NCBI RefSeq assembly: GCF_017348835.2
Contig: NZ_CP071375.1
Strand: one strand, 5' to 3'
Origin: Escherichia coli
GTDB taxonomy: Bacteria; Pseudomonadota; Gammaproteobacteria; Enterobacterales; Enterobacteriaceae
DNA: 64,000 nt
Within the stretch, counting starts at the first letter, position 1; each line of letters starts with the position of its first letter. Below are positions 50,501 through 64,000 of the stretch, piece after piece. A program made the position numbers.

Positions 50501-53500
50501 CTCAGAACGTCAACAACAATAACAGCAGCATCATCGCTGAAAATGGTCCGCTTAATCTGCTGTCCAAAGGAACGCTGGATAATACCCGCGCGCTTCTCAG
50601 CAGTGGGGCTGATGCCATTATCCGTGCGGCAGGGACGTTCTACAACAACTATGCCACTACGTACAGCGTCGGTAATCTCGACGTTTATGCGGCGTCGTTG
50701 AACAACGCCAGCGATGGTCGCCTGGAAGACAATACCGCCACGGGCGTGATTGCGTCTGACAAAAACCTGGATCTGAACGTGGATAACAGCGTCACCAACT
50801 ATGGTTGGATCAGCGGTAAAGGGGATGTGCATTTCAATGTTCTGAAAGGCACGCTGTATAACCGTAATGCCATCGCAGCGGACAACGCGCTGACCATTAA
50901 TGCCCTGAACGGTGTTGAGAACTTTAAAGACATCGTGGCGGGAACTGCGCTGACTATTGATACGCAGAAGTATGTTACCAACAACAGCAACAGTAATATG
51001 TTGGGACAAACCATCGCGATCAATGCCGTGAATGACATTAATAACCGTGGAAATATTGTAGGTGATTATTCTCTGGGTGTTAAAACCACCGGTAATATTT
51101 ATAACTACCTCAATATGCTGAGTTATGGTGTCGCTGGCGTATCGGCAAATAAGGTTACGAATAGCGGTAAAGACGCTGTTCTCGGTGGCTTCTACGGTTT
51201 AGCGTTAGAAGCAAACGAAACTGATAACACCGGTACTATTGTCGGCATGTAAGATGTAACCAAAGACAGCAGTGGCTTTTAATATTAATGCGTCATGTCA
51301 CGCAGGGGTTGCTGCTGTCTTTATTTAGTTTGAGAAGATAATGCAATTACGATTTAATTTTGGTTTGCTGCTCATTCTTTGTTGTTTTCAGGTTGCAGCG
51401 AAAGACAGTCTTGATAATTTGATCAAGCAGCAAAAAAATGCAGATGAAAGCACGTTACGCGCGCATAAATTAGAAAAAAAAGATGTTTACTCAAATGCAC
51501 AACGTAATGCGTTTACTCTGGGTGATCTGCCGCAGGAAAAGAATTGCTTTATCATCAATCGGGTTGAAGTGGAAGATAACTTTCTGGGGGGGCAGTTGAT
51601 TTCTGAAGTACATAAAGCGGTTACCGGGCGTTGTGTCGGTAGTGCTGGTGTGCAAAAAATTGCTGCTGCCTTGCAGGATTATTATATTAATGCCGGATAT
51701 ATCACAACGCGAATTAGTATCCCTTCGCAGGATATTTCTAAAGGCAAGCTACGTTTCCAGGTTAATGCCGGGAAGATAGAAAAAACGATTGTGGAAGGTA
51801 ATGACATCAGTGAATGGATGTTACCTTTTCAGCGTAACGATATTCTCAATATTCGCGATATTGAACAGGGGCTGGAAAATCTTCAGCGAGTACCTGACGT
51901 TGATGTGAAAATTAATATTGAACCGGGAACACGGGATGGTTACAGCATCGTTCATATTGATACACACCGGGGGAAAAACTGGAGCGTTCGGGCAAGTTAC
52001 AATAATTGGGGCGATGAAGAAACGGGCCGTTACCAGACAACCGCGGTGGGTTATCTGTTTAATCCAGCGAAAATGGGGGATCTGTTTTATCTCGCCGGTA
52101 CGCGTAGTACTACCGGACAGTATGAAAACGTCAGTAGTTATTATTCCATTCCGGTGGGGTACTGGGAGTACGGCTTTTTCTATAGCAAAAGTAAATCGCA
52201 GCAGGTGATTCCGCTTTCGTACATCTCGCTGGATTATGTTGGCACCAGCGAATACTTGAGCGCAAAGGCGACGCGTACCGTTTATCGCGATAAAACAAAA
52301 AAATTCGCCGGGAGTGCAGAACTCATTCGACGAAAGTCGAATTACACGCTTAATGGTGAGGAGCTGACATTACAGGCGCGGGATATGGGAAATATCAAGT
52401 TGGGGCTAAATTATAAGCAACAGTTACCCGGCGCGTTCTGGGATTCAACCCTCTCGTGGCAACGCTTTTTAACCTGGTTCGGTGGTGAAAAAACGCCGGA
52501 TATGCAATATGGCGACGTTAGCCCGGTAAGCAATATCTTTAATTTTGAGGGTAACTATACCCGACAAATAGAGAATGGATATTACAATACCGCTTTTTTT
52601 GCCCAGTACGCACCGCGTGAACTGACTTTGCAAGATCAAATTACAGTTGGCGATCGTTGGAGTATTCGCGGGTTTGAAAATAGCGTAGGTTTGTCAGGGA
52701 ATGATGGTTTTTATATAAAAAATACGCTGGCATTTCCTTTGCCTGGAATTAAAGCTAACTATTATGCCGGTCTTGATTTTGGGCAAGTGTATCAGGACGC
52801 TTCTTATGGCGATGAATCACTGGTGGGCGCGGCAGTTGGTATTGATGGAAATATTAAAAGTCTTGAGTATAACTTTTCCGTTTCTACCCCATTAAAGTAC
52901 CCGGCGACATTAGATATTGATCGGGTGAATGTAAATTTTAATTTTTCGTACCAAATGTAAAGGATAACGAGACTAATGAGAATAGGGACAGATATTGTTG
53001 AAATTGCCAGAATAACCAAAGCCATTATTAATGGAGAGATGGCTTTTTATGAGCGTGTTTATACTGCTCATGAGCGCTTACTCATTAACCCTGCAGAACC
53101 TGATTATGAACGGGCCTCTGGATTCTGGGCGGCGAAAGAAGCGTTAGTTAAAGCGATTGGTTGTGGTTTTCGTGATGGCGTACGTTTCCAGGATATTGAA
53201 ATAAAGCATGATGCAGCCAAAGCACCTTACTTCGTTATTTCCGGAAGACTACAAGAAATTTTTATCGGGCAGGGGTTGCAAAATAACTCCCTGAGTATTT
53301 CGCATTGCCGTACCCACGCCATTGCGACTGTCATCGTTTATTAACTCAACATATGTGATGAATATGTACAAATATAATGATTTAAATGAAAAAACCGTAC
53401 TGGTGACAGGAGCCAGTGGTGATATTGGGCTGGGTATTTGCGAAAAATATCTGGAGCAGAACAGCGATGTTTATGCGCTCTATAAATCCAACGACGTGCA

Positions 53501-62500: not shown

Positions 62501-64000
62501 GGTGTGGCGATCTTTTTATATGGCGGATTTATTGATTACTCTTTCTGGATCCTGAAAGAGCAGACGATTCGTACCAATATTGGTCATGTGCAGATTTACA
62601 ATCAGCACTATTTTGAAACGTCGAATAAAAATAAGAGCCTGATTGCCGATTATGCGGCGTTAAAGAAAGCTATTTTGTCGGACCCGACGCTGGCGACGGA
62701 TATTTCCACGCTCTCCGGGCAACTGGAGTTTACTGGCGTAATTTCACATTACGAGAGCGAAACCTCCAGCTATTTCTCTGAGCTGGGTGTCGAGCCATTG
62801 CCCGCTTTAAAGCTGGGATCGTTCGATAAGATTATCGCGGGGAGCGACCTTTCCCGGGTAAAAGGTGATGAAATCACCCTGGGCAGCGGTCTGGCGAAAA
62901 CGTTGAATGCGAAATACGACGACTGGCTGGATGTGATGGTGGTCAACACGGCGGGCGGGCAGGGTGCATTGTCGCTAAAACTGCGTGGCATTTTTGAGTC
63001 AGGCATTAAAGATTATGACGATGTCGCGATGAAGATCCCGCTGGACACCGCGCAGCGCATGATGGGTACGGATGGCGTCAGCAAAGTGCTTATTCTGCTT
63101 AAAGAAGATGACACCGCGGCGTTTAGCGCAAAGCTGCGTCAATTTATCGAACGCAATCATTTGCCGCTGGTGGTCAAAGACTGGCGTGATGTTTCACTCT
63201 TTTATCAACAGGTTGAAGGGTTGCTATCGGGGATCTATTTCTTCATCAAGCTGATTGTTGCGCTGATTGTCATCTTCATGATCGGCAACTCGATGGCAAT
63301 GAACATTGTTGAGCGCACCCGTGAAATTACCACTCTGCGTGCCATAGGCCTGAAGCCGCTTCACGTCACGCGCTTGTTTCTGACAGAAGGCATTTTTATT
63401 GGTGTGATTGGCGCAGTCGGCAGCCTGCTGGTGGGGGGCGTGTTAGCCTGGATTATTAATCTTTATGGTATTGCGATGCCGCCATCGCCGGGACAAACCA
63501 TCGGCTATACCGCCTTTATAAAAACCAGTAACCCGGAATTGATTTGGGTGACGGTGGTATTACCTATTTTGACAGCAACAGGTGCCTCTGTGTTACCGGC
63601 TTTACGTGCTTCCCGGCTGAATATTTCTGACGCATTTAAATTCTCGTAGGACTGATTATGAATATGGCTTTTTACGGCAAGTGGTTTGCTTGCCTGTGGC
63701 TCGCTACGTCGTGCGTTCAGGCGGCGAGCACAGATAATAAGGCGCTGGAGATAATTCGTCGCGCTGACGAAATTCGTTCGCCGAATAAACCGTTTCGTTA
63801 CACGCTGACGGTAACGGAATATAAAGCGGGCGTAACCCAGCCAGAGAATAAACAGGTCCTCGATATTTCCATGCGCTTTATGAAACCGCAGGGTAATGAA
63901 AAAGCGGATGCACGCTCGCTGGTGCGTTTTATTTATCCGCCGCGAGATAAAGGAAAAATCATGCTTTCCGACTGGTACGATTTATGGTTTTACACGCCGG

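Follow-up and report, generated by a model that had tools for sequence, protein, structure and literature searches.

In a 64,000-nucleotide stretch of Escherichia coli contig NZ_CP071375.1 (assembly GCF_017348835.2; hereafter the window), the two-partner secretion (TPS) genes otpA and otpB are directly followed by genes for lipid synthesis and export, and together these are a single unit of 16 genes on one strand, running from otpA through a malonyl transferase gene beyond the window end. We consider it somewhat probable that the unit acts as a whole, as a private synthase for an unsaturated or incompletely reduced lipid whose predicted destination is the outer membrane or cell surface, where it would act with the exoprotein OtpA. 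Directly established are the gene content, the folds, the active-site states and the conservation of the link between the lipid genes and the TPS pair, which are joined in one operon in more than twenty genera. Since 2007, OtpA and OtpB have counted as a textbook TPS pair 'of unknown function', and one conserved unit gives both this pair and the orphan lipid system a concrete, testable hypothesis.

The gene order is otpA, otpB, acpS, ketoreductase (KR), dehydratase (DH), acyl carrier protein (ACP), gcvT-like, a ketosynthase (KS) fused to a chain-length-factor-like (CLF-like) domain (KS-CLF), a second KS-fold gene (KS2), X317, ABC ATPase, P218, FtsX permease, LolA-like, outer-membrane barrel and malonyl transferase, and the listing of open reading frames (ORFs) shows + strand genes unbroken from 47440 to the window end at 64000. 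A preliminary description of the window had reported twelve co-directional, packed genes at 52976-64000; all twelve ORFs were found on the + strand, the last cut by the window end, with intergenic gaps of 0-73 nt and two overlapping junctions (4 nt at KS2/X317, 17 nt at ABC/P218). Its start of the unit at 52976 has to be moved upstream, as the otpB stop codon lies 15 nt before that position and the OtpA/OtpB pair, a clue to function that the description did not contain, is a conserved part of the same unit. The ORF calls agree with the RefSeq annotation of E. coli PE164, which is 100% identical over the region (identity to O157:H7 genomes is 98.7%), and past the window end the annotation of this identical genome continues with the remainder of the LolA-like gene, a 462-aa hypothetical protein, an 'ACP S-malonyltransferase', ycdU, tRNA-Ser and ghrA. 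The predicted continuation past the 3' end was thus real and supplied the rest of the LolA-like gene, the barrel and the malonyl transferase, but the priming enzyme, thioesterase and acyltransferase that, it had been suggested, might lie downstream do not follow. A terminator and promoter scan, with counts near the shuffled expectation, gave no convincing internal + strand terminator, and an Rfam scan of 45000-64000 gave no match.

The first two genes of the unit, otpA (47440..51252, + strand; TpsA exoprotein, 1270 aa) and otpB (51341..52960, + strand; TpsB outer-membrane transporter of the ShlB/FhaC family by RefSeq annotation), together spanning 47440-52960, are the OtpA/OtpB pair (ECs1282-1283) of O157:H7. 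The TPS (NPXG) domain of OtpA scored 77 bits against TIGR01901 (cut-off 29.1), otpB orthologues carry the Pfam domains POTRA_2, POTRA_3 and ShlB, and published work describes OtpA as a genuine TPS exoprotein, secreted through OtpB by experiment, and lists its function as unknown. The pair therefore belongs to two-partner (type Vb) secretion by its TPS domain, its adjacent POTRA/ShlB TpsB and its published secretion. Two features of otpA itself are recorded here as observations. An internal tandem duplication (49204-49994 and 50338-51128, 791 nt each, 67% identical and 1134 nt apart) accounts for the length of 1270-1290 aa in E. coli and Enterobacter proteins compared with 840-930 aa in most other genera, and an 892-aa form (P0174) occurs in some E. 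coli. A 457-aa antisense ORF at 49636-51009 on the - strand, absent from the RefSeq annotation, is most likely an artefact of the repetitive, stop-poor beta-helix repeats.

The tpsA-tpsB-acpS order was first met through distant GcvT-like homologues in Acinetobacter and a Neisseria species. One genome per species was scanned with the X317 family, and all 16 proteins were mapped onto the resulting 36 loci, which fall into three architectures (classes A, B and C). Class A, the E. coli type, has the identical 16-gene order in Enterobacter, Klebsiella oxytoca, Kosakonia, Leclercia, Mixta, Rahnella, Buttiauxella, Pantoea, Serratia sp. Ag1, Silvania, Tenebrionibacter, Acinetobacter and Neisseria sp. 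Class B (other Serratia, Paraburkholderia, Erwinia endophytica, Edaphovirga, Winslowiella and Entomohabitans; loci L005, L006, L007, L028, L030-L032, L035, L036 and L038-L043) has no upstream tpsAB, and class C (Proteus mirabilis, P. myxofaciens, Morganella and Providencia; loci L029, L033, L034, L037 and L045) has a much more divergent ABC transporter, no LolA-like gene and no barrel. A tpsA-tpsB pair stands directly before acpS in 22 of the 22 class A loci with enough upstream DNA (the mapped loci, this window and two loci from a reverse test with OtpA), and these span Enterobacterales, Acinetobacter, Neisseria and Utexia, with flanking genes that differ between genera; the tpsB-acpS gap, 15 nt here, is 15-23 nt across five genera. 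In class C, tpsA directly precedes acpS in Proteus and Morganella, as scored where upstream DNA was available (P. mirabilis and Morganella). The reverse test agrees: the taxa of the 120 best OtpA homologues are those of the class A cluster, and both homologues that were sampled (47-49% identity) are followed by tpsB-acpS-KR-DH-ACP-gcvT-KS/CLF-KS2-X. Within E. coli the two parts have near-equal distributions, with otpAB in 382 genomes and the cluster in 387 of the 5426 complete genomes; a single copy of each (1/382 and 1/387) is plasmid-borne rather than chromosomal.

These patterns bear on whether the TPS pair and the lipid operon have anything to do with each other. They could be unrelated modules co-transferred as one island, the TPS pair supplying an adhesin or cytolysin, perhaps as an accessory of the nearby fimbriae, and the lipid being an envelope component with a separate role, for instance in stress protection or biofilm formation, as aryl polyenes are; it would fit this that class B clusters function without a linked tpsAB, that Choi et al., as cited in a later source, linked otpA to the fimbrial locus loc6, and that a fimbrial operon adjoins the unit in locus L049 too. 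We nevertheless regard co-transfer as unlikely: tpsA-tpsB-acpS, with its 15-23 nt gaps, is kept at 44-60% protein identity in four orders with unrelated flanks, the tpsA-acpS adjacency recurs in the differently built Proteus class, and passenger genes are not expected to survive such divergence. Because its position has been kept through divergence and recurs beside acpS in class C, we conclude from gene order that there is a functional tie between the TpsA and the lipid pathway.

The lipid operon proper begins with acpS (52976..53344, + strand), for an AcpS-type phosphopantetheinyl transferase, followed on the same strand by genes for a FabG-like ketoreductase of the short-chain dehydrogenase/reductase (SDR) family (53358..54119), a FabZ/ApeI-like dehydratase of 182 aa (54123..54671) and a 93-aa ACP (54693..54974); the FabD-like malonyl transferase is encoded on this strand beyond the window, at 31870-32811 of locus L001, in which 7484-10006 corresponds to window positions 41459-43981. 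The catalytic motifs of the KR, DH, ACP and malonyl transferase are in place. The S...YxxxK motif of the KR is readable in the sequence, the GHF..P.MPG....E motif of the DH is at least 95% conserved in 37 orthologues, and the same level of conservation across 35-37 orthologues holds for the ACP serine motif LDSVDATE and, in the malonyl transferase, for GHSxGE and the arginine. FabZ structures in the PDB align to the N-terminal half of the DH only, the C-terminal half being longer, and DH orthologues carry PF07977 together with a weak or faint match to the ApeI-like PF22818.

The KS-CLF fusion (56244..58802, + strand; 852 aa) had been described as a KS-KS-like fusion, of which the first half stands and the second does not. 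When the KS-type domains of nine diverse orthologous loci were aligned with ApeO and ApeR of the aryl-polyene (APE) pathway, C162, H294, K325 and H330 of the N-terminal domain (residues 1-405) were invariant, whereas the C-terminal domain (406-852) had lost all four catalytic residues, with E, Q, Y, V, I, M or N at the cysteine position; on this alignment, it is a fused, non-catalytic CLF-like domain. PDB matches of the protein include FabF enzymes and the ishigamide KS 6kxd. A catalytic KS with a dead CLF, discrete KR, DH and ACP and no enoyl reductase (ER) is the gene set of a highly reducing type II polyketide synthase (PKS) or fatty-acid-synthase-like polyene synthase. The preliminary description had seen no adenylating enzyme or thioesterase in the window, and by NCBIfam matches and annotation the whole operon contains neither of these and no ER.

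The next two genes, KS2 (58807..60030) and X317 (60027..60980; 317 aa), both on the + strand, depart further from known condensing enzymes. KS2, previously called a second KS, has the KS fold and scored weakly, at 50-64 bits, against KS models, but its active site reads Ser-His-Lys-Tyr instead of Cys-His-Lys-His: serine takes the nucleophile position and tyrosine replaces the second histidine in 9/9 diverse orthologues, and both positions were confirmed by HMMER alignment to PKS KS domains. With these residues KS2 cannot, as far as motifs predict, be a canonical condensing enzyme, and it is probably an acyl-transfer or off-loading enzyme. X317, earlier left as an unknown protein, has no Pfam or NCBIfam match and 48 representatives among 1.84 billion proteins. 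An AlphaFold2 model built from 24 relatives (predicted local distance difference test score 87.8) had StlD, ChlB3, OleA, FabH and PqsBC as its best PDB matches in Foldseek (E ~1e-10), all thiolase-fold condensing enzymes and acyltransferases, and the orthologue alignment contained no conserved cysteine and no conserved nucleophile. In one metagenomic relative, KS2 and X317 are a single fused protein of 784 aa. X317 is thus a thiolase-fold partner of KS2, and we infer that the two form another heterodimer of the KS/CLF kind. As the cluster contains neither a thioesterase nor an acyltransferase, acyl transfer or release through an acyl-O-Ser intermediate may fall to this pair.

Between the ACP and KS-CLF genes lies a gene for a GcvT-family enzyme with the folate-dependent aminomethyltransferase fold (55010..56170, + strand). 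Like acpS, the gcvT-like gene was found in every related locus, and 68 residues of its product are at least 95% conserved in 37 orthologues. Its best PDB match is the Thermotoga maritima T-protein (E = 1e-22), and it keeps an aspartate aligned to the DD of canonical T-proteins, which we take to be the catalytic residue. Enzymes of the GcvT family capture or donate one-carbon units via tetrahydrofolate, and the canonical substrate is held on the swinging lipoyl arm of the H-protein, which is akin to a phosphopantetheine arm. No gcvH or gcvP was found near the locus in the annotation of the identical genome, and our literature searches found no GcvT-type enzyme placed in a KS/ACP pathway and no characterised equivalent either of a GcvT-like enzyme in an ACP pathway or of the KS2/X317 pair.

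NCBIfam equivalog cut-offs were used as the line between housekeeping enzymes and paralogues. Scores fell below this line for the KR (237 bits against TIGR01830 FabG, cut-off 297.75), the DH (72-73 bits against FabZ models over residues 17-80 only, cut-offs 113-155), the ACP (29 bits for the best model, cut-off 70, all ACP/PP-binding matches being sub-threshold), KS-CLF (453 bits against TIGR03150 FabF, cut-off 493.75), the malonyl transferase (178.6 bits against TIGR00128 FabD, cut-off 260.9), the ABC ATPase (228 bits against TIGR02211 LolD, cut-off 307.75), the permease (91.6 bits against TIGR02212 lolCE, cut-off 362) and the GcvT-like enzyme (94.8 bits against TIGR00528, cut-off 235.85). 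The AcpS domain model TIGR00516 (79.6 bits, cut-off 59.8) was the sole fab-type model passed, and the AcpS protein scored 66.9 bits against TIGR00556. NCBIfam matches, and Pfam labels on orthologous loci, confirmed the family placement of the genes, in agreement with the first assignments, and the private ACP with its phosphopantetheinyl transferase, KS, KR and DH does stand beside a Lol/MacB-type ABC transporter and a LolA-like protein, as had been described.

Because they score under the equivalog cut-offs, these proteins are not ordinary fab/lol paralogues, and high identity to the housekeeping genes, named beforehand as the finding that would overturn the preliminary description, was not observed; the AcpS domain model apart, housekeeping fab/lol paralogy was rejected on these scores. 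The scores likewise place the unit outside housekeeping type II fatty-acid synthesis, and the GcvT-like score and the lack of gcvH and gcvP in the locus place that enzyme outside the glycine cleavage T-proteins. A reading of the genes as redundant or decaying paralogues of the housekeeping fab and lol genes, with no dedicated product, draws on their best family names (FabG, FabZ, FabF, FabD, LolD and LolCE), but is scarcely credible: besides the scores, the ORFs are intact at 98-100% identity in ~380 genomes, catalytic motifs are kept in 35-37 orthologues from many genera, and X317, P218, the barrel and the GcvT-like enzyme have no housekeeping counterpart.

The export genes follow on the + strand and comprise a LolD/MacB/DevA-type ABC ATPase (60991..61698), which also matches DarD, MacB and DevA-type models; P218 (61682..62338), a secreted protein of 218 aa; an FtsX-family permease with a MacB-type periplasmic domain (62339..63649), whose orthologues carry PF12704 MacB_PCD and PF02687 FtsX; and a LolA-like carrier (63658..64000 in the window, where it is cut; full gene of 262 aa at L001 29683-30471), whose orthologues carry the TP_0789-like domain PF17131. 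The barrel gene OMP462, for a 462-aa, 18-strand OprD/AlgE-like protein, lies beyond the window on the same strand (L001 30468-31856). P218 has no Pfam or NCBIfam family; its orthologues have a conserved type-I signal peptide, and tblastn found a homologue of its gene at the same position in all three cluster classes. The LolA-like protein, without an NCBIfam match, has a type-I signal peptide and no lipobox cysteine conserved across orthologues, for which reason it is probably a soluble periplasmic carrier. OMP462 has no Pfam or NCBIfam match. Lipoprotein status was rejected for the LolA-like protein and the barrel, neither of which has a conserved lipobox. By their predicted families, the ABC/FtsX transporter, P218 and the LolA-like protein plausibly form a route by which a hydrophobic product could leave the inner membrane, cross the periplasm and reach the outer membrane.

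Taken in sequence, the predicted activities suggest the following pathway. AcpS would activate the private ACP and the FabD-like enzyme would load malonate onto it, after which KS-CLF, KR and DH would iterate chain extension, with the CLF-like domain setting the length. Because the unit has no enoyl reductase, the ACP-bound chain would be unsaturated (polyene-like) or hydroxylated. The GcvT-like enzyme may then add or remove a one-carbon or aminomethyl unit using tetrahydrofolate, and the KS2/X317 heterodimer may take the finished chain as acyl-O-Ser and hand it to an acceptor, replacing a thioesterase or acyltransferase. The MacB/LolCDE-type ABC transporter, with P218, would pull the lipid out of the inner membrane, the soluble LolA-like protein would ferry it across the periplasm, and the OprD/AlgE-like barrel would deliver it to the outer membrane or the surface; the lipid may finally act with the secreted, beta-helical OtpA as a bound cofactor, an anchor or a cargo.

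We caution that several points weigh against this pathway. In class B a tpsA was found nearby in 2 of ~16 loci and tpsAB directly upstream in none, which means that the lipid pathway can exist without a linked TPS; conversely, in the Proteus class tpsA occurs without tpsB (in P. mirabilis none was found in the 8 kb upstream), and the LolA-like and barrel genes are missing, so that neither the TPS nor the LolA/barrel module requires the other. Substrates of MacB/LolCDE-type transporters are not carried across the inner membrane, which leaves the step to the outer leaflet unaccounted for. The chain could also be reduced by housekeeping FabI, and it would then be no polyene. Fold and active-site residues are the basis for the roles assigned to the GcvT-like enzyme and KS2/X317, and a literature search for product, phenotype or transcript evidence for the cluster found none.

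The tight tpsA-acpS linkage in two cluster classes also admits a more direct connection, in which a special acyl chain is covalently attached to OtpA in the manner of HlyC and the Lol-like machinery handles the acylated exoprotein. The private ACP and a KS-like protein with a serine nucleophile, possibly an acyltransferase, would suit such a reaction, as would the lack of a thioesterase or lipid acyltransferase, and acylated proteins are normal clients of Lol-type machinery. However, OtpA travels through Sec and has its signal peptide cleaved, and the acyl donor resides in the cytoplasm; class B has the ABC transporter, LolA-like protein and barrel without a linked tpsA, and the Proteus class is the converse, without the LolA-like protein and barrel; and no lipobox or conserved acceptor motif was identified. 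We know of no precedent for acylation of a TpsA and regard covalent attachment as improbable, more so than the co-transfer of two unrelated modules. Returning to the exported lipid, it is a tentative possibility that the unit is a new kind of TPS, in which the exoprotein depends on a co-encoded lipid, built by KS-CLF, tailored by the GcvT-like enzyme while still bound to a carrier protein and released by KS2/X317, that loads, anchors or covalently modifies an OtpA-type TpsA. If this were true, the synthesis, tailoring and release steps would each be new chemistry or new biology.

The unit occurs in essentially all O157:H7, with relatives in the Enterobacter cloacae complex, Klebsiella oxytoca, K. 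aerogenes, Proteus mirabilis, Morganella and Acinetobacter. If it yields an envelope or surface lipid, this could matter for colonisation, attachment to plants or hosts, immune recognition or toxin function. The architectures also differ in accessory genes. Class B has a FabL-like SDR between the permease and LolA-like genes, whose best match is the enoyl-ACP reductase FabL (162 bits, under the cut-off), and two further proteins without a match in Pfam or NCBIfam, one (254-282 aa) encoded behind X317 and the other (352-365 aa) behind the malonyl transferase gene; class C has a 336-aa protein with no assigned role after the malonyl transferase.

The window region fits the right half of O-island 47 of E. 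coli O157:H7 (z1528-z1556), because its position between dgcT and ycdU/tRNA-Ser and its content both agree with that island. Reviews of O-island 47 name the regulator GrvA as its sole characterised product. Upstream of the TpsA and TpsB genes stand dgcT (ycdT), an EAL protein, a winged-helix regulator and a fimbrial operon, the EAL-domain protein and the regulator (GrvA-type, ToxR-like), both part of the island, lying at 34789-37808 of the window (L001 814-3833). The fimbrial operon resembles the O157 locus 'loc6', and its usher gene (41459-43981, - strand) is interrupted by a stop codon in this strain and annotated as a pseudogene; in L049, an ECP/Mat-type fimbrial operon and a winged-helix regulator adjoin the TPS-lipid unit. 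A 1.4-kb non-coding, AT-rich stretch at ~46047-47439 (GC 0.32-0.35 compared with ~0.50 in the operon) precedes otpA and may hold candidate promoter and silencing sites for the whole unit. At the other end, the operon is immediately followed by ycdU (L001 32808-33794), in this strain likewise a pseudogene interrupted by a stop codon, and the tRNA-Ser gene after it (L001 34168-34255) suggests an island boundary. A 'polyketide or fatty-acid biosynthesis system' has reportedly been listed for O-island 47 ever since the EDL933 genome was published in 2001.

The locus itself is not a new discovery: the region has an annotation, antiSMASH flags it, and it has been referred to as a 'lipid metabolism' island. 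To the extent that the literature could be searched, the new elements are the conserved coupling to OtpAB, the division into three classes, the fusion of the KS to a dead CLF, the barrel, the pairing of a Ser-type KS with a thiolase-fold protein, and the separation from the APE clusters. That separation needs justification, since the preliminary description noted an APE resemblance and a published pangenome study, using antiSMASH 6, reports an 'aryl polyene biosynthetic gene' in segment s1-ST11, from ECs_1282 onward; the same study places the real O157 APE cluster (BGC0000836) in a different segment, at ECs_4324-4341. Besides this rule-based call, a KS, KR, DH and ACP set without an ER is APE-like, and the DH orthologues have the ApeI-like Pfam match noted above, so the unit might be read as an aryl-polyene pigment cluster. 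Direct comparison with the O157 APE cluster by BLASTP argues otherwise. The KR is 33% identical to ApeQ, KS1 (the first domain of KS-CLF) 33% to ApeR and 31% to ApeO, and the ACP 33% to ApeE, and there was no counterpart of ApeB, ApeC, ApeD, ApeG, ApeH, ApeJ, ApeK, ApeL, ApeM or ApeN.

In the APE pathway, ApeH, an acyl-ACP synthetase, activates the aryl starter, ApeR is the initiating KS, ApeC the chain-length factor, ApeK a thioesterase, ApeB a methyltransferase, ApeD and ApeJ acyl- or glycosyltransferases, ApeM an RND (resistance-nodulation-division) exporter, ApeL a LolA-like and ApeN a LolB-like protein. Here, neither a BLASTP match to ApeH nor an annotated adenylating enzyme was found; in place of ApeO, ApeR and a separate ApeC, nothing matches ApeC and the CLF-like domain is fused; ApeK, ApeD, ApeJ and ApeB have no BLASTP match and no such NCBIfam families are present; and instead of RND export with ApeM, ApeL and ApeN there are the ABC/FtsX transporter, the PF17131 LolA-like protein and the barrel. 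With just the KR, KS and ACP matching, and with the GcvT-like enzyme, ABC exporter, barrel and TPS pair lacking an APE equivalent, membership in the APE clusters was ruled out and the pigment interpretation is very unlikely. The resemblance is, judged from the proteins compared, one of generic KS/KR/ACP chemical logic and not of family membership. In line with the preliminary description, no characterised product is on record, and the antiSMASH call is not upheld.

Set beside known systems, the unit shares with the APE clusters (E. coli CFT073 c1186-c1204 and O157 ECs_4324-4341) type II fatty-acid-synthase-like KS/CLF, KR, DH and ACP with no ER, a single-strand overlapping operon and a LolA-like protein for outer-membrane localisation. 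It lacks their ApeH, methyltransferase, thioesterase, ApeD/J, RND exporter and LolB-like protein and has, in contrast, the fused KS-CLF, the GcvT-like enzyme, the Ser-type KS and its partner, its own AcpS, the malonyl transferase, the ABC exporter, the barrel and the TPS pair. The ishigamide enzymes Iga11/Iga12 (6kxd) are likewise a KS/CLF pair with discrete KR, DH and ACP and no ER, and make polyene chains, but they are actinobacterial, have separate KS and CLF subunits and come with no envelope export or TPS module. The LolCDE-LolA pathway and the MacB/DevBCA type VII exporters resemble the export genes in their LolD/DevA-like ATPase, FtsX/MacB permease and soluble LolA-like carrier; the unit differs in having one permease gene rather than LolC and LolE, no LolB and no MacA/DevB adaptor, with P218 and the 18-strand OprD/AlgE-like barrel instead, and its sub-cut-off LolD and lolCE scores, single permease gene and lack of LolB place it outside the LolCDE-LolA-LolB pathway. 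The OtpA/OtpB system that Choi, Dawson and Bernstein (2007) described in O157:H7 is this very locus (ECs1282-1283). Our literature search found no OtpA/OtpB work linking the pair to the downstream lipid operon, and no characterised homologue or product of the cluster. Precedents for lipid-dependent secreted proteins exist in the acylation of RTX toxins by HlyC from acyl-ACP and in the activation of ShlA, which needs phosphatidylethanolamine; there is no HlyC homologue here, and those systems use a housekeeping ACP or bulk phospholipid, whereas OtpA would be served by a private synthase encoded in its own unit.

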